DNA of 64,000 bases from a virus. Under the pieces are notes generated by a model. The model was not told the DNA's origin and ran no database searches. It saw only the letters and a list, made by a program, of their open reading frames with translations. Location: positions 96,001-160,000 of the IMG/VR virus record IMGVR_UViG_3300045988_143931; one strand, 5' to 3'. Made by a program: the position numbers and the translations under genes. Positions 1,115-12,738 of the stretch are shown piece by piece (position 1 is the first letter of the stretch; the number at the start of each line of letters is the position of its first letter).

Positions 1115-3982
1115 TTGGATAATACAGGAATTTACATACCATCTATTGATGCAAAGGATATTTATTTATCAGCACATTACATTGAGGAAAATCCAGAAGG
1201 ATATAATTTAAAACTCAAAGATGGACAGTATAATTTACGAAAATTTATTAATACACTTGATTACAGTTTGGATCTTATAGAATTAAAAGATATTTATTAT
1301 AGGAAATTTAGAAAACATGATTTTTCATTTAGAATTAAAAAGCACGATTATTCTGTGAATGTAATTAATCTCACATTTAAGTATTCCGTTAAAGAATGGA
1401 ATCAGATGAACAAAAACACTTTTGTAAGACTTGGATATGATTACAGAGAACTTACATTTGAAGATGGAATTGCTAAAAATAGCGAAGGTGAAATTGTTGG
1501 GATTAAGACGAATGAAAAAATTGAAGATCCGATTGATATACCAAAACCATTTGTTAAAAAGCAGGTAAACATCTACGACAAAAAAGATAAATCTATTGTC
1601 AAAGAGATTCAAACTCAGTATCACAAAAAGGGTGAACCAAAGACTATAAAGACAAATGCAGAACTTAGAACTGAGTTGTATAAAGATGGATTTATATGTA
1701 ATGGTATTAAATATTGTCGTATGAAACGTTCTACTGGTTCAGCAAGAGTTGGTAAATGTCTCTTTATCAGAGAAGATTTATATGAATCAATTTTAAAGTT
1801 CAGTTCAGGTAGTCTTAAATACAATCAAGGCGATCCAATTGACTTAGCTGCATATGAGGGATATATTGCTCTTCCATCTAGTAGTATTATTGATACAATT
1901 TCAATTAAACCAGAAAATATTCTTTTAATTGATGACTATGATAGCATATTTAATGAGGATGTAATCGAGACTCACGATGAAGATGGATGGCTTAAAACCA
2001 CTGAAAAGAATTGTAAAATCACAAATACAATTTGGGATGGTCAGTCTCTTATGGATATATCATTATTTGGTGATTATTCAGAATATGGTATGCTTCTGCT
2101 TAGAAATCTAATGTTCAAGTCTTGTTGTTTTAACTGCAATATCCAACAATGGTTCAAAGATAATAATATAACAGATGTATCTCAGCTCAATGGTAAAACA
2201 AGAGCTACACGCATTGAAGATGTAAAGCTAATTACCACACCTAACAGTATTAAATATTTGAAATTTAGTACATGGGACGAATGGCTTGACCACTTATATT
2301 CTGATTTTGGTGTTGTAAAGCATGATAAGAAAACTCACTTCTTTGGTGGTCGTTTGGTACAGACTCATTATCAATTACTCAATACTCTTCAGATGTCAAA
2401 AGATGAAGTAAGGGAATTTTTGCAGGAATCACTCGACTTTGCACAAATGCTTAGAGATAGACCAGAAGTTGTGCGCTATTACATTAAATATCCTGATATT
2501 GATGAAATGTCACCTATGGATAAACCTATGAGTAGTAAGAATGATGTAGTTTATAACTTAATGTGTGTGAATGATAATTTTACAAAAACAAAATACTATC
2601 AAGAATTTCTTATTGACTTACTTCGTTCATATTACAAAAATCTCAAAAATGGACATATTTATGTAAATGGTAATTACTCTACTCTTCTTGGCAATCCAAT
2701 AGAAATGCTACAACAATCAATCGGTAAGTTTGAAGGAAAAAGTCAAATTGGAATTGGCAACATACATAGTACACGTTTTGAATATAACAAAACTCTTCTT
2801 GCTAGTCGTTCACCTCATGTTACAATTGGAAACATTTGGCTTCCATATAATACGGAGAATAAATTGATAGATTGTTATCTTAATCTTACAAATGAGATTG
2901 TGTGTATTAATTCTATTGGAGAAAATGTATTGCAGAGACTATCGGGTGCTGATTTTGATAGTGATACAGTAATGTTAACAGATAATGAAAAACTCATTCG
3001 TGCAGCTAAAAGAAATTATCATATATTCAAAACACCAACATCGTTTGTTAGTTCAACAAAAGTTAAAAGATATTATACACCTGAACAACAGGCAGATCTT
3101 GATATTAAAACATCTGTAAATAAAATCGGTGAAATTGTTAATCTATCACAAGAATTAAATTCTTTACTTTGGGATAAGATGTATCATGGTGCTACTTATG
3201 ATGATATTAAGGAATTGTATTATGATATATGTCAGTTAGATGTTATGTCTGGAATTGAAATTGATAAAGCAAAGAAAGAATTTATTATCAACAATGGTAA
3301 GGAGTTAGACAAGTTACGTGAAAAGTATGATGAGTTTGTGCGTGAATATGAAGAAAATGAAGAAGGCGAATTAGTAAGAGGCAAAAAGCGTATGCCACAC
3401 TTCTTCTCTCATATCTCTAAACAAAAAGGATATTACAATCCCGACAAGAAACATTATTGTAAATGTCACACTTCGATGGATTATTTGCAGACTATTATTA
3501 ATGGATTTAAAATTAAGAATCCTTATAAAAAGGATTGGCTTCCATTTGTATCTATATTAGATAACTCTTTATTTAGGACATCTAGTATAAATCAAAAACA
3601 GATAAATCGAATTTATAGTATTTTAAAGAAATACATAAATGAAAGGAAGAATATATTCGCCATTGATTCCGACTCAAAAGAAGAACGAAATGATAAAGCA
3701 AATAAGCTTAAAGTTGATTTAATTGCAGATATTGAATCAGAAACAATTGGTTTTTCAACATTATATCGTTTACTTTCTTCTCTTGAGGATAAAGAAAATT
3801 CTCAAATCAAAAATCTTTTATTAGAAGTTTTGTATCTTTGTGGTAATGATAGCTTTAATAAAGCTATTATCCAATCTAAAAATGAAATTCTCCAATTAGA
3901 AGGTAATGGATCTGATATTAAATTATTTAATATTGGGTTTAAAATTACAAAAAAACAAGTAAATTCGGAAATTGACAGCTAA
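1115..3982 (+). CDS. candidate single-subunit double-psi-beta-barrel RNA polymerase (YonO / RDR-like)
   Basis: 955-aa ORF with TTG start 9 nt after TGGAGG. LSGADFDSDTVML (GAT TTT GAT AGT GAT at 2950-2964) resembles the NADFDGD metal-binding loop of RNAP beta' and the DxDxD loop of YonO/QDE-1-type enzymes. Size fits YonO-like proteins. Confidence 0.5.
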   Translation: MDNTGIYIPSIDAKDIYLSAHYIEENPEGYNLKLKDGQYNLRKFINTLDYSLDLIELKDIYYRKFRKHDFSFRIKKHDYSVNVINLTFKYSVKEWNQMNKNTFVRLGYDYRELTFEDGIAKNSEGEIVGIKTNEKIEDPIDIPKPFVKKQVNIYDKKDKSIVKEIQTQYHKKGEPKTIKTNAELRTELYKDGFICNGIKYCRMKRSTGSARVGKCLFIREDLYESILKFSSGSLKYNQGDPIDLAAYEGYIALPSSSIIDTISIKPENILLIDDYDSIFNEDVIETHDEDGWLKTTEKNCKITNTIWDGQSLMDISLFGDYSEYGMLLLRNLMFKSCCFNCNIQQWFKDNNITDVSQLNGKTRATRIEDVKLITTPNSIKYLKFSTWDEWLDHLYSDFGVVKHDKKTHFFGGRLVQTHYQLLNTLQMSKDEVREFLQESLDFAQMLRDRPEVVRYYIKYPDIDEMSPMDKPMSSKNDVVYNLMCVNDNFTKTKYYQEFLIDLLRSYYKNLKNGHIYVNGNYSTLLGNPIEMLQQSIGKFEGKSQIGIGNIHSTRFEYNKTLLASRSPHVTIGNIWLPYNTENKLIDCYLNLTNEIVCINSIGENVLQRLSGADFDSDTVMLTDNEKLIRAAKRNYHIFKTPTSFVSSTKVKRYYTPEQQADLDIKTSVNKIGEIVNLSQELNSLLWDKMYHGATYDDIKELYYDICQLDVMSGIEIDKAKKEFIINNGKELDKLREKYDEFVREYEENEEGELVRGKKRMPHFFSHISKQKGYYNPDKKHYCKCHTSMDYLQTIINGFKIKNPYKKDWLPFVSILDNSLFRTSSINQKQINRIYSILKKYINERKNIFAIDSDSKEERNDKANKLKVDLIADIESETIGFSTLYRLLSSLEDKENSQIKNLLLEVLYLCGNDSFNKAIIQSKNEILQLEGNGSDIKLFNIGFKITKKQVNSEIDS

Positions 3983-4108: not shown

Positions 4109-4429
4109 ATTACAATACAACAAGGAAAAAAATATTATAATCAAAATGATATTGCAAATGAAATTCGTAATAGGATTGATTGTTCATCAATAGATGTACT
4201 TCGTGTACTTAATTCGTTAGGTGATGTGGTAAAGGATAAATTTAGTGATAGTGATGAATATGTTGAATTAAAAATATTTCCTGGACTAAAAGTAACTTCA
4301 AGATATATACCACTTGAACAATCTAAATCTAATCTTAATTTAAAAAATAATTCTATTTTATCTATTACTTCAGTGTTCACTGATGATTTTCGTAAAAAAG
4401 TTAGAGAATTACATAATAATTTAGAATGA
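4109..4429 (+). CDS. HU/IHF-like DNA-binding protein (second copy), apparently with non-canonical start
   Basis: Frame is open from 4055. AAGGAGG at 4101-4107 is followed in frame by ATT 4109 and ATA 4115. The first canonical start is GTG 4226. The full translation (NDIANEIRNRIDCSSIDVLRVLNSLGDVVKDKF...VELKIFPGLKVTSRYIP...SITSVFTDDFRKKV) has HU-fold spacing only if it starts upstream of 4226. Confidence 0.5.
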   Translation: MTIQQGKKYYNQNDIANEIRNRIDCSSIDVLRVLNSLGDVVKDKFSDSDEYVELKIFPGLKVTSRYIPLEQSKSNLNLKNNSILSITSVFTDDFRKKVRELHNNLE

Positions 4430-4513
4430 AATCAGCTTTTCTTAATATCCTGCCCTATAGGGGCATTACATAATATTAAAAGTTTATCTCATAAGCTAAC
4501 CTCTCTTTCTTAT

Positions 4514-4554
4514 ATCGGTGGTTACATTATTTTGATAATGGTGTAATCACTGAT
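4514..4554 (+). promoter_or_regulatory. long imperfect hairpin immediately upstream of tRNA-Asn
   Basis: ATCGGTGGTTACATTAT ... ATAATGGTGTAATCACTGAT pairs over ~17 positions with G:T wobbles. Function unknown (processing or regulatory stem). Confidence 0.3.
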
Positions 4555-4559
4555 ACTCT

Positions 4560-4631
4560 TCCCATATAGTTCAATGGTAGAGCAACGGACTGTTAATCCG
4601 TAAGTTACAGGTTCGAATCCTGTTGTGGGAG
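4560..4631 (+). tRNA. tRNA-Asn(GUU): tRNA-Asn (anticodon GTT)
   Basis: Manual cloverleaf: acceptor TCCCATA/TGTGGGA, anticodon stem ACGGA/TCCGT with loop CTGTTAA, T arm ACAGG-TTCGAAT-CCTGT. Confidence 0.9.
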
Positions 4632-5458
4632 TTATCCTATTTTTATAGGACTGGTCGGTTTCGGATCAGAGAATATTAAATTCTAAAATAAGCATGGTGA
4701 CATGTATAAAGTGGTTCTTATCGCATTATAAGGCTGCGACTGTAGTGATACAGTTTGACGGAAAACACATAGGATTTATACCTAACCTAAAATCAGAGGG
4801 CTACTGCTAATGATATGGTTCGGTAGGTGTCATGAAAAAGGCACTGTTAATTAACACAGAAATGTGGGGATAATCCGTGTATGGTTGGTGGAAATACCGC
4901 AAGTATAACTGCTAGTCATATTTTGGTAATATCTCTTAAGTTGAAAAACAGGGATAGAATCAAAAAGCAAGGAGATCGCAATCCAAGCAGGATGGTGATG
5001 ATTGGGCGGTACTCAAAAGGTACTGATGGTCAAATATACACCTCATCGTCCAAAATTTAATTACATACTTTTAAATTGGTCAAATAATAGAAAAGATAGA
5101 TTATTTAAAGAAAATAACAAGCAAAAGTGTGTATGACCGCAAAGAGAAAAACAACTTATTGTCCTGTAATATGGACACATATAACACTCGCAAGGTGTTA
5201 TGTGAGAAAGTACAAGTATATGCAACTCTAATAGGCTGCAACCTATGAATCTCGCAAGGAAGAATGTGTAAAAAGAAAATCTATAATGCTTTGTGGTAAG
5301 AGTTTGCCAGTTATGTCAAAACTGGTGTTGTTGCTACCTACTGTCTAATCGACAGTGTGATAAATTGTGTCCAACCGCAATAGATGGTAGTGTATTGAGT
5401 CAATATCTCAGCTCATATTAAGTAAGAGTCTCATACTTCGGTATGGGATTTTTTATTT
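4632..5458 (+). ncRNA. large (~830 nt) ORF-free structured RNA candidate between two tRNAs (GOLLD/ROOL-class context)
   Basis: No ORF of 60 aa or more in any frame across 4430-5714. Many local hairpins, several with GNRA-type caps: CATG-GTGA-CATG 4693-4704, CTGTA-GTGA-TACAG 4740-4753, TAACAC..CGCAA..GTGTTA 5182-5200. CGCAA occurs six times. Ends in a UUCG-capped intrinsic terminator. Confidence 0.55.
5430..5458 (+). terminator. intrinsic terminator closing the large RNA
   Basis: CTCATAC-TTCG-GTATGGG stem-loop followed by ATTTTTTATTTT. Confidence 0.75.
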
Positions 5459-5533
5459 TGGGAATTAGTTCAGTTTGGTTAGAACGCCTGATTTGGGTTC
5501 AGGAGGTCGTGGGTTCAAATCCTACATTTCCAA
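5459..5533 (+). tRNA. tRNA-Pro(UGG): tRNA-Pro (anticodon TGG)
   Basis: Manual cloverleaf: acceptor TGGGAAT/ATTTCCA, D stem GTTC/GAAC, anticodon stem CCTGA/TCAGG with loop TTTGGGT, T arm GTGGG-TTCAAAT-CCTAC. Confidence 0.85.
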
Positions 5534-5571
5534 CTACTATTCTACTTTGTAGGAAATAAATCAAGAAAGAA

Positions 5572-5718
5572 GTGAAAATTATTAAGTACATTTCAAAAAA
5601 TGAAATTGAAAAATTATTATTCGAAGGTGTAATTAGAAACACAAGACGAGGATATGTAGATCGCAGAGGCGAACATATTGGATATTACAAGACTTGCTTA
5701 AGTAGGTTCTGCTTATGA
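5572..5718 (+). CDS. small hypothetical protein (48 aa), below ORF-track cutoff
   Basis: GTG 5572 after GAAAGAAG. Translation is VKIIKYISKNEIEKLLFEGVIRNTRRGYVDRRGEHIGYYKTCLSRFCL. Its TGA overlaps the next ATG (ATGA at 5715-5718), suggesting coupling. Confidence 0.35.
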   Translation: MKIIKYISKNEIEKLLFEGVIRNTRRGYVDRRGEHIGYYKTCLSRFCL

Positions 5719-6277: not shown

Positions 6278-7486
6278 GTGATTATCATAACTTCTTATAA
6301 AAGATTTGAAAATGAGACAGACGAAGAACTTATCTACAGAGTTTGTTCAGACAAAGATCTTATTGGCTCGTGGCAAAATGTGGCTGATATATTAAATGAG
6401 TTGCTTGGTACAGAGTATACGGAATCAAAATTTCGCAAACAGTTTCAAGCTTTTAACAAAATGTTAAGTGCTAATAGAAGTAAATTTACCGATTCTGATG
6501 AACAGATTAAGGAGATTGAAGTTCAAAAGCGTGAGTTGGAAAAAGAACGCAAAAAGCTTCAAAGCGAAAAGATTGAATATAACAAATGGTTGCGTGAAGA
6601 AGCTAGGGATGAATTAATTGCAGAGAAAATTTGTGAAGCAATTACTTCTCTTGATAAATATTCTTCTCCTGTGCGCATATCTCCATCATCTAACAAAAAA
6701 TCATGGATATTGGCAATTTCAGATTGTCATTATGGTTGTGAATATGAAATTAAAGATTTTTATGGTGGTATTATAAACGCTTACTCTCCCGAAATCTTTG
6801 AGGAAAGAATGACTATTTTATTTAATAAAGTTGTAGATAAAATTGAGGATCTTGGCATAAAAGAGCTTTCTATCATTGAACTTGGAGATGGTATTGATGG
6901 TGTTCTTAGAATGTCTCAGTTAATGCGCCTTAGATATGGAGTTATTGAATCAAGTATTCGTTATGCTGATTATTTAGCGAATTGGTTGAATGAATTGAGT
7001 AAATATGTCTCGATTAAGTTTCAAATGGTTTATGACTCAAACCATAATCAACTTAGACTTTTAGATGGAAAGAAAAATACCTTTCCAGATGAAAATGTAA
7101 GTAAAATTATGATGGCTCTTATTAAAGAGCGATTAAAAGATAATGAAAATATTGTTATCTTAGAAAATCCAACAGGTATGACATATTCAATAATGTCTAC
7201 ATACTGTGTTGTTGGATTTCATGGTGAAAAGAAAAATCTTAAAAATAATCTTTTAGAAATGTCTCGTACTTATGGAGTTCATATAGATTACACAATTTCT
7301 GGACATATTCATCATGATAGTATGGCTGAAATCGGATTGGATTCTGCTGTATTATCTGTCGGTTCAGTAATTGGTATAGATCCATATAGTATGACATTAA
7401 ATGCAGCTTCCAATGCCTCATGTTCTATGTTTGAGTTTATACAAGGAGAAGGAAGAACTGCTGAATATGTTTTTAAATTGAATTAA
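6278..7486 (+). CDS. calcineurin-like metallophosphoesterase (Mre11/SbcD-type fold) with N-terminal extension
   Basis: Ordered motifs ISDCHYG, ELGDGIDG, DSNHNQ, GFHGEK, SGHIHHD match D-x-H / GD-x-x-D / GNH / H / GH-x-H. The start is uncertain: GTG 6278 is only 1 nt from AAGGAG. Confidence 0.8.
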   Translation: MIIITSYKRFENETDEELIYRVCSDKDLIGSWQNVADILNELLGTEYTESKFRKQFQAFNKMLSANRSKFTDSDEQIKEIEVQKRELEKERKKLQSEKIEYNKWLREEARDELIAEKICEAITSLDKYSSPVRISPSSNKKSWILAISDCHYGCEYEIKDFYGGIINAYSPEIFEERMTILFNKVVDKIEDLGIKELSIIELGDGIDGVLRMSQLMRLRYGVIESSIRYADYLANWLNELSKYVSIKFQMVYDSNHNQLRLLDGKKNTFPDENVSKIMMALIKERLKDNENIVILENPTGMTYSIMSTYCVVGFHGEKKNLKNNLLEMSRTYGVHIDYTISGHIHHDSMAEIGLDSAVLSVGSVIGIDPYSMTLNAASNASCSMFEFIQGEGRTAEYVFKLN

Positions 7487-8744: not shown

Positions 8745-8827
8745 GGGTAGGTATGCAAGTGGTTAAAGTAGGCAGACTGTAAATCTGTTGGCGAAAGCCT
8801 TCGAAAGTCCGAATCTTTCCCTGCCCA
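8745..8827 (+). tRNA. tRNA-Tyr(GUA): tRNA-Tyr (anticodon GTA), class II with long variable arm; unusual T-loop TCCGAAT
   Basis: Aligns position by position with bacterial tRNA-Tyr architecture: GGGTAGG...GCAGA-CTGTAAA-TCTGT-long variable arm-GAAAG-TCCGAAT-CTTTC-CCTGCCC-A. Confidence 0.85.
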
Positions 8828-8857
8828 CTAAAATAATTAAAATAAATAAAATATTAC

Positions 8858-8897: not shown

Positions 8898-8918
8898 TAT
8901 GTGAAAGGAAGTGATTTA

Positions 8919-9947
8919 GTGGCACATGTAACAAGGGTAAAATATTTTACCAAGGATAAGGAGAAATTCATAAATCCTGATAACTTGAAGAAATATAAAA
9001 AATATCTCCAATCAAATATTATAAAAAATCAGGATGTTAAAGATACAACATATAAAAGATATGAGGGATTGTTTCGTCATTTTCTTATGTGGCTAGGTGA
9101 AAACTATGGTGATTTAGATTTATATTCAAATGAGTTTATGGAGAATGCCGTTGATATTATGGAGAATTATATTATGTTCTGCCAGGAAATACTTCTGAAT
9201 CATAAAAAGATTATCAACATGAAAATCTCTGCTATTAGTTCATTCTATATTTGGTCTATGAAACGTGGTTTTGTTAAATACCATCCTTTTGATGGGAAAC
9301 TTGATAGAATGAAGAAAGCTAATGAGGAACATATTTTAAATTCGTATTTCCTTACAGAAGAACAAGTTCAGACAATCCGTAGAGAATTATCTGAAAATGA
9401 TAAGTATTCAATTCAAGATCAAATTTTATTTGAAGTAAGTTTTGACTCAGCAAATAGAATTGGTGCATTGTTAAGATTGCAGTTATCCAAACTTGATTTA
9501 GAGAACAATATGTTTGTAGATATAAGGGAAAAAGAAGGATACCGTACACAGGTAGTTTTCGGGGATGTTGCAAAAGAGCTTATTCAAGAGTGGCTTGAAA
9601 TGCGAAAGAATGATTATGACCACTTGGAATGTGATTCATTGTTGATCACAAAATACAATGGAGAATATAAACCTATGGGTGACAGTGCAATCAGAGATAG
9701 AATGAAGAAATATGGCGAAATTATTGGAATTTCTGACTATAGACCTCATTGCCAGCGTAAGACTAGGCTAAATCTTGTATATGAGGAAACTGGTGATTTA
9801 GCATTAGCAGCCGAGCTTGCCAATCATCGATCCACTGAAACAACTAGAGAATTTTACTGCCGCAAGCAGACCAAAGCAGAGGTTATGAATAAAATCAATG
9901 CTCTAAGAAGCAAAAATTCTAATGTTGCTGACGAAGAGAATAAATAA
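8919..9947 (+). CDS. tyrosine recombinase (phage-integrase/Xer family), second copy in window
   Basis: ORF track 8901..9947. GTG 8919 is 7 nt after AAAGGAAG. Catalytic signature in order: ANRIGALLRL (Arg), HCQRKT (H-x-x-R), LANHRSTETTREFY (His...Tyr). Confidence 0.8.
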   Translation: MAHVTRVKYFTKDKEKFINPDNLKKYKKYLQSNIIKNQDVKDTTYKRYEGLFRHFLMWLGENYGDLDLYSNEFMENAVDIMENYIMFCQEILLNHKKIINMKISAISSFYIWSMKRGFVKYHPFDGKLDRMKKANEEHILNSYFLTEEQVQTIRRELSENDKYSIQDQILFEVSFDSANRIGALLRLQLSKLDLENNMFVDIREKEGYRTQVVFGDVAKELIQEWLEMRKNDYDHLECDSLLITKYNGEYKPMGDSAIRDRMKKYGEIIGISDYRPHCQRKTRLNLVYEETGDLALAAELANHRSTETTREFYCRKQTKAEVMNKINALRSKNSNVADEENK

Positions 9948-11453: not shown

Positions 11454-11526
11454 GATCTGTTCGTCTAGTGGTCTAGGACATCGCCCTTTCACGGCGGCAA
11501 CAGGAGTCCGAATCTCCTACAGATCA
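11454..11526 (+). tRNA. tRNA-Glu(UUC): tRNA-Glu (anticodon TTC); unusual T-loop TCCGAAT
   Basis: GATCTGT-TC-GTCTAGTGGTCTAGGAC-A-TCGCC-CTTTCAC-GGCGG-CAAC-AGGAG-TCCGAAT-CTCCT-ACAGATC-A. Collinear with the canonical bacterial tRNA-Glu pattern. Confidence 0.85.
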
Positions 11527-12512: not shown

Positions 12513-12600
12513 GTAGTATTGGCAGAGTTGGTATTGCACCTGATTGCTAATCAGAGGTCATCGTTTATTCGGTGCATAGGTTCAAGTCCTATATACTACG
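12513..12600 (+). tRNA. tRNA-Ser(GCU): tRNA-Ser (anticodon GCT), class II
   Basis: Acceptor GTAGTAT/ATACTAC, anticodon loop TTGCTAA, long variable arm, T arm ATAGG-TTCAAGT-CCTAT. One C:A mismatch at the top of the anticodon stem. Confidence 0.8.
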
Positions 12601-12605
12601 CTCAT

Positions 12606-12689
12606 GCCGTGTGTCCGATTGGTCGAGGGTGCTGTCTTGAAAACAGTCTGGATGTAAAAGTCTTTAGGGTTCGAATCCCTAACACGGCG
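12606..12689 (+). tRNA. tRNA-Ser(UGA): tRNA-Ser (anticodon TGA), class II
   Basis: Acceptor GCCGTGT/ACACGGC, anticodon loop CTTGAAA, long variable arm, T arm TAGGG-TTCGAAT-CCCTA. Confidence 0.85.
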
Positions 12690-12738
12690 TTCTAAATAAA
12701 TTGCACTTTCATTGGAAATTTAATATTGGAAATTATGA

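Follow-up and report, generated by a model that had tools for sequence, protein, structure and literature searches.

Evidence for a divergent GOLLD RNA in the tRNA island of an uncultured large phage

Introduction

Only a few natural RNAs are known to form large cages without protein, and GOLLD is one of them. The GOLLD RNA env-38, which comprises 833 nt, comes from a marine metagenome and lies downstream of a tRNA-Met gene, forms a closed D7 14-mer cage, determined by cryo-electron microscopy (cryo-EM; PDB 9MEE), in which the 5′ domains make up the caps, the 3′ domains make up the ring and a disordered linker is held inside (Kretsch et al. 2025, PMC12286853). The S. agalactiae GOLLD forms a 12-mer (PDB 9L0R) and is devoid of P9, P11a–c and P21b (review PMC12990946). 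Here we describe what is very probably a divergent GOLLD RNA of about 826 nt, encoded at positions 4633–5458 (+ strand) of a 64,000-nucleotide stretch of viral DNA (positions 96,001 to 160,000 of IMG/VR record IMGVR_UViG_3300045988_143931; 'the window'). The RNA scores below the Rfam threshold of its family, RF02032, and belongs to the tRNA island of a large phage that is uncultured and may infect gut Lachnospiraceae.

ROOL, another large phage-associated RNA that occurs near tRNAs, assembles into RNA-only 6-mer and 8-mer cages and has an internal disordered loop. For the role of GOLLD, the literature offers only leads, namely a rise in expression during phage-induced lysis (PMC12286853) and a speculation about tRNA storage (PMC12990946). 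A first-pass annotation of the window, made from its letters and open reading frames (ORFs), had placed an ornate structured RNA exactly between tRNA-Asn and tRNA-Pro, likened its phage tRNA context to that of GOLLD and ROOL, and left the choice between these families and a new class undecided. The present analysis confirms a non-coding, structured, CGCAA-rich RNA of 826 nt at this place and supports a large RNA of that kind. The question of family is resolved as GOLLD by a full-length RF02032 match, covarying helices, nucleotides equivalent to the cage contacts and a 5′ module; given the RF02032 match, a new class is not supported. The RNA family and its phage and tRNA setting are known, and this is not a new kind of RNA. 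New are a divergent sub-threshold lineage that is common in the gut, independent support for the published contacts, the tight wedging between two tRNAs and a leader hairpin.

Assignment to the GOLLD family

A permissive Rfam scan of 4400–5700 matched RF02032 (GOLLD) at 4990–5414 (+ strand) over model positions 1–416 of 416, with 100.3 bits and E = 7.7e-27; it otherwise listed two tRNAs and four matches at chance level. Over the whole 64-kb window, a permissive scan listed GOLLD (E = 3.8e-25) and nothing else. The Rfam model spans only the conserved 3′ half of GOLLD, so that 4633–4989 is left as the putative 5′ domain. The signature motifs of the family are all present and are invariant in the lineage of the window RNA: AAGCAAAAGU, the CGCAA pentaloops, the CAAAA loop and the terminal AUCUCAGC.

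Relatives were collected by a motif scan of IMG/VR (AAGCAAAAGT, 40–70 nt, CTCGCAAGG), which returned at least 118 viral loci. The loci listed include both GOLLDs that pass the Rfam cut-off and members of the window lineage, and for about 45 of them nhmmer gave alignments to the 5′ as well as the 3′ half of the window RNA. Rfam scans of 25 viral loci gave complete matches in two groups, one passing the cut-off (171–305 bits) and one made up of the window lineage and its nearest relatives (77–101 bits; 79–101 bits for the seven complete lineage matches tested). Every complete match covers the full model, and the scores span from well above to well below the cut-off. Apart from their higher scores, the above-threshold members (for example, in Lactobacillales prophages) resemble the window RNA in a 3′ domain homologous over the whole model, a phage or prophage setting and tRNAs that are often nearby. 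The window RNA is almost certainly a homologue of GOLLD.

The pentamer CGCAA occurs six times in the RNA (4898, 4977, 5138, 5189, 5253 and 5376), exactly where the first-pass annotation had located it, and the excess is borne out by 2000 dinucleotide-preserving shuffles (mean 0.36, maximum 4). Three copies (4898, 5189 and 5253) form 5-nt hairpin loops, the consensus motif of GOLLD; the copy at 4977 lies in an 8-nt loop, and those at 5138 and 5376 are part of helix strands. The earlier suggestion of GNRA-type loops engaged in tertiary contacts was only roughly right: the loops are pentaloops typical of GOLLD rather than classical GNRA tetraloops, and the equivalent loops of env-38 do make contacts, which are kisses of 1–2 bp through GC (UC in L20 of env-38) and not of the tetraloop–receptor kind.

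Covariation of the two domains

Alignment A1 comprises 29 distinct full-length relatives that are 71–95% identical to the window. RNAalifold predicts 184 pairs on this alignment, 88 of them with compensatory double changes and almost none broken. To avoid circularity, the Rfam GOLLD consensus structure, which was not derived from these sequences, was transferred to A1 through the alignment of the window to the model. With the transferred structure, 91.0% of the cells are paired, compared with 31–45% when the partner columns are slid, and 33 of 92 pairs are compensatory, compared with 2–5. Support was obtained for 12 of the 14 Rfam helices of the 3′ domain (P13–P27 in the published numbering).

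The 5′ domain has 74 pairs in 13 helices, which are 99.3% paired across the 29 relatives and show 41 compensatory pairs versus 5–8 with slid columns; this is a less independent test, as the structure was derived from the same alignment. Covariation is strong in both halves of the RNA, and the homologues with compensatory changes that had been proposed as a check were found for both. An exhaustive search for covarying runs outside the nested structure, such as pseudoknots or kissing loops, gave too much noise, as the relatives form just a few sub-lineages.

Architecture of the RNA

All elements of the RNA are on the + strand. The GOLLD 5′ domain (4633–4989) consists of about 13 helices with covariation, including a GNRA hairpin (4693–4704), a long-range helix (4767–4776 with 4872–4880), a CGCAA-capped hairpin (4883–4917) and two GAAA-capped hairpins (4855–4866 and 4940–4949). 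Two GUGA-capped stems had been singled out in the first reading; the loop at 4697 occupies a conserved GNRA position, and the loop at 4745 is not conserved in relatives. The other hairpins listed there all exist, two of them shifted by one base to 5231–5246 and 5306–5326.

The 3′ domain opens with a hairpin (4990–5051; Rfam model positions 1–63) that corresponds to P13/P14 in the published numbering, with covarying helices that are 99% and 91% paired and an invariant CAAAA loop (5014–5018). It is followed by an AU-rich linker (J13/15; 5052–5117), which varies in length and sequence among relatives, aligns to an unstructured part of the Rfam model and has as its env-38 counterpart the disordered loop within the cage (Kretsch 2025), and by AAGCAAAAGU (5118–5127), which is invariant in 29 relatives. 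A long-range helix mapped from the Rfam structure (5136–5144 with 5289–5297) encloses four elements; within it lie a hairpin (5160–5177), the L20-equivalent CGCAA hairpin (5178–5204) and the P21-equivalent stem (5219–5270), which carries two hairpins (5231–5246, loop CUGCAA; 5250–5260, loop CGCAA). The helices of this element (5136–5297) are 83–100% paired, with compensatory changes. The remaining 3′ domain comprises a hairpin (5306–5326), a three-way element (5333–5391) composed of hairpins 5339–5357 and 5364–5381 with an invariant GAUAAA junction, and a last hairpin (5396–5415) with the invariant AUCUCAGC. Helices of this part (5306–5415; Rfam model positions 307–416) are 98–100% paired, with compensatory changes in each.

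A nearly invariant, lineage-conserved ACAUACU in the linker (5063–5069) is complementary to AGUGUGU (5126–5132), just after AAGCAAAAGU. The helix, which would close the linker into a loop, is predicted by the single-sequence fold, where it extends to 11 bp in the minimum free energy structure of the window, and by RNAalifold. Both strands of this predicted helix are almost invariant, and no equivalent is evident in env-38.

Equivalents of the cage contacts

The bridge residues and the construct sequence of env-38 were taken from the supplement of Kretsch 2025 (PMC12286853). The machine-read env-38 sequence was short of 17 nt, and positions were therefore mapped by local motif anchoring rather than by residue number. 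Of the bridges, among which B1–B5 are the contacts of the 5′ caps, the mapping covers B6–B10.

In B6, the adenines of the env-38 CAAAA loop (A447/A448), which act as A-minor donors, correspond to 5014–5018 of the window. In B7, GA of the env-38 AAGAAAAAGU (G546–A547) pairs with UC of the loop CUCAA (U617–C618); the counterparts in the window are AAGCAAAAGU (5118–5127) and the CGCAA loop at 5189–5193. The GC of AAGCAAAAGU is, by analogy, the predicted kissing partner of that loop on the neighbouring subunit, and this kiss between J13/15 and L20 would be GC:GC, as in the family consensus, rather than the GA:UC of env-38. The palindromic GCs of the two P21 loops of env-38, which engage in symmetric kissing in B8 and B9, are represented by CUGCAA (5236–5241) and CGCAA (5253–5257), respectively. 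In B10, the junction adenines that follow the P24-equivalent hairpin of env-38 map to GUGUGAUAAA (5355–5364). All of the B6–B10 equivalents are invariant in 29 of 29 relatives, as are the GAUAAA junction and AUCUCAGC, which provides independent evolutionary support for the published quaternary contacts. By analogy with env-38, the window RNA is likely to form a cage.

The similarity extends to the 5′ domain. Both env-38 and the window RNA contain the string AAAUAA, GNRA hairpin, (G/U)AUAAAGUGG, hairpin, CUGCG, hairpin and UUGA. A covariance model of this 5′ module (R2), built from window 4683–4766, matches four threshold-passing GOLLDs (L049, 171 bits; L094, 174 bits; L042, 227 bits; L020, 305 bits; Rfam scores). 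The matches are on the correct strand and 215–331 nt upstream of the 3′ domain, with E values of 0.005–0.06 that are only roughly calibrated; L049 and L094 have the same spacing of 223 nt, one nucleotide less than the 224 nt of the window.

Overall, the window RNA resembles env-38 in size (826 and 833 nt), in its position directly downstream of a tRNA and in its two domains joined by an AU-rich linker. It shares with env-38 the 3′-domain helices, the contact nucleotides (those of the CAAAA loop, the J13/15–L20 kiss, both P21 GCs, the GA(U/A)A junction and AUCUCAGC) and the 5′ module with AUAAAGUGG. The two differ in primary sequence, which has diverged too far for nhmmer, in the predicted make-up of the kiss and in the loop at 5346–5350 considered below. 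Env-38 is marine and was seen as a 14-mer by cryo-EM; the window RNA belongs to a gut phage and is known here from sequence alone. With both P21 hairpins and the length of env-38, it is closer to env-38 than to the shorter S. agalactiae form, a likeness from which the oligomer number is not predictable.

The tRNA cassette

The RNA fills the gap between two tRNA genes on the + strand. The tRNA-Asn(GTT) gene (4559–4632; ARAGORN, and Rfam with 72.4 bits) encodes no CCA and is followed without a gap by the RNA; the tRNA-Pro(TGG) gene (5459–5534; ARAGORN, and Rfam with 65.6 bits) begins directly after the U-tract. This arrangement is characteristic of the lineage. Among the listed motif-retrieved matches, a same-strand tRNA directly precedes the RNA at 36 of 45 lineage loci versus 8 of 61 other loci, and directly follows it at 37 of 42 versus 15 of 66. 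The upstream tRNA of the lineage loci listed is Asn-GTT (19), Met-CAT (16) or Ser-TGA (1), and the downstream tRNA is Pro, Lys, Thr, Asn, Phe, Ile or Glu, with two left unassigned by ARAGORN. In full-length members, the gaps between tRNA and RNA are 0–8 nt upstream and 2–19 nt downstream; at one lineage locus, tRNA-Ser(TGA) lies 19 nt before the AAGCAAAAGT motif.

An 18-bp leader hairpin (4514–4556, + strand), identified with RNAalifold on 22 relatives, ends 2–3 nt before tRNA-Asn. Nine of its 18 pairs are compensatory in the 22 relatives, and many G–U pairs are present on the + strand. The corresponding pattern occurs once in the window (0.03 expected); 22 lineage loci have a single copy each, and the remaining loci retrieved, including all GOLLDs that pass the cut-off, have none. 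The hairpin matches no Rfam family. These data suggest that the leader hairpin belongs to the transcription unit in this lineage, where it might stabilise the 5′ end, provide a site for RNase III or act in anti-termination. A conserved pyrimidine tract (4500–4513) precedes it. At RF02032 loci above the threshold, tight flanking by tRNAs on both sides and the leader hairpin are much rarer or absent.

The RNA ends in a hairpin (5429–5436 with 5441–5448, + strand) with a UUCG loop, in which five of eight pairs covary, followed by a U-tract to 5458. The terminator scan recovered it as a terminator-like hairpin (5424–5453) whose U-tract reaches the first base of tRNA-Pro, in agreement with the UUCG-capped terminator noted in the first-pass annotation. 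Of 29 relatives, 25 have a U-rich tail after the terminal hairpin, and tRNA-Thr comes next in the other four; the conserved element is thus the hairpin itself, which usually doubles as a terminator. There is no room for a promoter before tRNA-Pro, which therefore probably depends on read-through.

In Bacillota, tRNA precursors without an encoded CCA are cut after the discriminator base by RNase Z. A plausible route to the RNA would start from a + strand unit in which leader hairpin, tRNA-Asn, GOLLD and tRNA-Pro are transcribed together. Cleavage of the CCA-less tRNA-Asn after its discriminator base, presumably by RNase Z, would set the 5′ end at 4633; the 3′ end would arise where transcription stops at the UUCG hairpin and U-tract or, upon read-through, where RNase P cuts at tRNA-Pro. 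We give this exact account of the ends an even chance of being right. Folding of the RNA would then yield two domains, a 5′ cap and a 3′ ring, with the floppy AU-rich linker between them, and, by homology with the env-38 14-mer and the S. agalactiae 12-mer, 10–14 copies may come together in a protein-free, closed dihedral cage that holds the linkers in its interior. The stereotyped order of leader hairpin, tRNA, RNA, hairpin and tRNA makes this a concrete, testable model for the production of the RNA.

A related arrangement has been described for mycobacterial GOLLD in tRNA arrays, in which a tRNA is embedded in the linker (Morgado 2020 via PMC12990946; PMC6582537). That RNA, like the window RNA, lies within a tRNA cluster acquired by horizontal transfer and has tRNA neighbours on either side; it differs in having a tRNA or pseudo-tRNA inside J13/15, whereas the window linker contains no tRNA and the tRNAs abut both ends. 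The same phenomenon is seen among the viral loci in a cut-off-passing GOLLD of 203 bits (L012, 1923–2362, − strand), which has a tRNA at 2206–2276 inside its linker.

Weighing the alternatives

Several results weigh against the assignment of the locus as a transcribed, cage-forming GOLLD RNA. The score of 100.3 bits is below the curated gathering score of RF02032 (150 bits, an operational cut-off and not a biological feature), and for this reason a default Rfam scan, at gathering thresholds, reports tRNAs alone from the window. Single-sequence and lineage-profile nhmmer searches, including those with the 3′ domain, gave no link from the lineage to env-38 or to the cut-off-passing GOLLDs; the GOLLD link therefore rests on structure-aware models and motifs, sequence-only methods being too weak for it. 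Two of the transferred helices are weak in A1 (columns 722–726 with 795–799, 59% paired; columns 764–768 with 777–781, 55% paired), and the second is better accommodated by a shifted register with a CGCAA pentaloop. The loop at 5346–5350 is UAAUC where the family consensus is GAAA-like; if its hairpin is P24 of the literature, as we take it to be, one published tetraloop contact may differ. An efficient terminator would leave the expression of tRNA-Pro unexplained, and a scan for sigma-70 promoters found no convincing promoter, although with 10 sites against 12.8 expected it is uninformative. Transcription, the RNA ends and multimerisation are predictions from the DNA sequence.

The alternative that survives best accepts the homology and supposes that the RNA works differently. 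The tRNA–RNA–tRNA cassette with its leader would be the functional point and the cage secondary, and the RNA might act in tRNA supply or processing, as a scaffold, decoy or timing device for the flanking tRNAs, or form a different oligomer. We regard this as unlikely. It draws on the close abutment of tRNAs at both ends among the listed lineage loci, on the restriction of the leader hairpin to the lineage and on the departure of loop 5346–5350 from the consensus; linker-embedded tRNAs have, moreover, been read as 'inhibited storage', itself a speculation (review PMC12990946). On the other side, tRNA adjacency can reflect plain co-transcription (Weinberg 2017), and the invariance of all B6–B10 contact nucleotides argues that the cage has been retained. 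A tentative elaboration, which we hold to be similarly doubtful, is that the gut-phage lineage is a distinct GOLLD subtype with a fixed cassette of leader hairpin, tRNA (Asn or Met), GOLLD, terminal hairpin and tRNA, in which the ends are set by tRNA-processing enzymes, and the leader and a leaky terminator tie the output of cage RNA to that of the phage tRNAs at its flanks. If true, it would give a first functional handle on GOLLD cages, a link to phage tRNA supply.

That the RNA represents a new, large and ornate class with no relation to GOLLD beyond a shared phage and tRNA context and some loop motifs is very improbable. It would account for the sub-threshold score and for the failure of lineage nhmmer profiles to reach env-38 or the cut-off-passing GOLLDs. 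It would also fit the behaviour of a second covariance model (R1; window 4826–4989, the 3′ part of the 5′ domain), which finds only lineage and intermediate loci and no cut-off-passing GOLLD even with filters off; this stretch is either particular to the lineage or too diverged for detection, in agreement with the published view of a variable GOLLD 5′ domain (review PMC12990946). The idea is largely refuted by the full-model match, by the 12 of 14 GOLLD helices that covary in register, by bit scores that run from 305 through intermediate loci to 77, and by the cage-contact motifs and 5′ module common to GOLLD.

Another known large RNA (ROOL, OLE, HEARO, raiA or a group I or II intron) is scarcely credible. 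ROOL has the same phage and tRNA context and size range (Weinberg 2017). It shows no sequence or structure match to the window RNA and has a different fold. In the Rfam check proposed in the first-pass annotation, GOLLD was matched, and ROOL, OLE, HEARO and raiA gave no match at E up to 10 in 4400–5700 or, across all 64 kb of the window, at E up to 0.01; the permissive scans list GOLLD, tRNAs and chance-level matches and no other family.

A decayed coding remnant or plain tRNA-array spacer with incidental hairpins, for which the AT-rich composition and a 59-aa ORF (4881–5060; the longest in the gap, so that the first-pass annotation, which denied any ORF of at least 60 aa, was literally correct) could be cited, is refuted by the covariation (88 of 184 pairs compensatory, almost none broken), the ORF frame being broken by stop codons in relatives, the + strand folding with −213.8 kcal/mol (z = −5.3; − strand, −164.1 kcal/mol, z = −2.3), and the full-length RNA being conserved in more than 100 contigs.

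Distribution of the lineage

The GOLLD lineage represented by the window RNA is widespread. A search with a lineage-specific pattern returned at least 118 metagenome stretches, many labelled human gut; among the 118 listed, all have the lineage 3′ domain and 104 have the 5′ domain, with the best being 93.5% identical to the window. Two genome bins, of Lachnospira sp. and Kineothrix sp., were also matched, which hints that the host is possibly a gut Lachnospiraceae. The curated Rfam threshold misses this whole lineage, which is common in human-gut metagenomes and is carried by large phages possibly of Lachnospiraceae, and surveys relying on the gathering score therefore undercount GOLLD. Its alignment offers a well-sampled, highly covarying, full-length set of env-38-like GOLLD sequences.

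Viral contigs of lineage relatives are typically 80–190 kb. GOLLD copies were also found on contigs of jumbo-phage size (L042, 372 kb; L048, 412 kb; L108, 345 kb); L042 passes the Rfam cut-off with 227 bits, and in profile searches L048 and L108 are intermediate, with the lineage on one side and the threshold-passing copies on the other. Two metagenome contigs as large as bacterial chromosomes (L138, SCPN01000038.1, 1.86 Mb; L155, PVMM01001146.1, 0.97 Mb) contain copies of the lineage RNA that match the window with about 90% identity across about 650 nt, and could identify the host if these copies are in integrated prophages.

Two kinds of variation were observed among the relatives. Some relatives look mosaic, among them L114, which is window-like at its 5′ end and in the 3′ domain and in between, within the 5′ domain, resembles the L116 group; this suggests recombination between GOLLD genes of related phages. 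Seven of 29 relatives (L025, L029, L045, L056, L069, L073 and L079), together with L096, which is identical to L025, have an insertion of 45–58 nt in the 5′ domain (A1 columns 195–252) that the window does not have and that looks like an optional peripheral hairpin.

Genomic setting

The carrier is an uncultured large phage. The window encodes a large terminase subunit, a portal protein, an endolysin, an integrase-like protein and an exonuclease, and its portal protein is at most 29% identical to portals of large Bacillota siphoviruses. Searched with blastn in distant mode against 50,697 GenBank phage records, the RNA gave no match, and it thus has no cultured relative.

ARAGORN places six tRNAs between 4.5 and 12.7 kb of the window. 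Beyond tRNA-Pro, the island continues (8745–8828, 8901–9947, 11454–11526 and 12513–12690) with Tyr, Glu and two Ser genes, is interleaved with the integrase-like gene and the exonuclease gene (6278–7486) and lies directly upstream of the terminase and portal module. The tRNA-Ser(TGA) gene (12605–12690) is called Ser by ARAGORN, and its best Rfam score is a sub-threshold, tRNA-Sec-like 37 bits. On another viral contig (L024, 48.7 kb), the tRNA island that contains an intermediate GOLLD of 77 bits also encodes a transfer-messenger RNA (tmRNA) above threshold (3113–3417, + strand; 64.7 bits).

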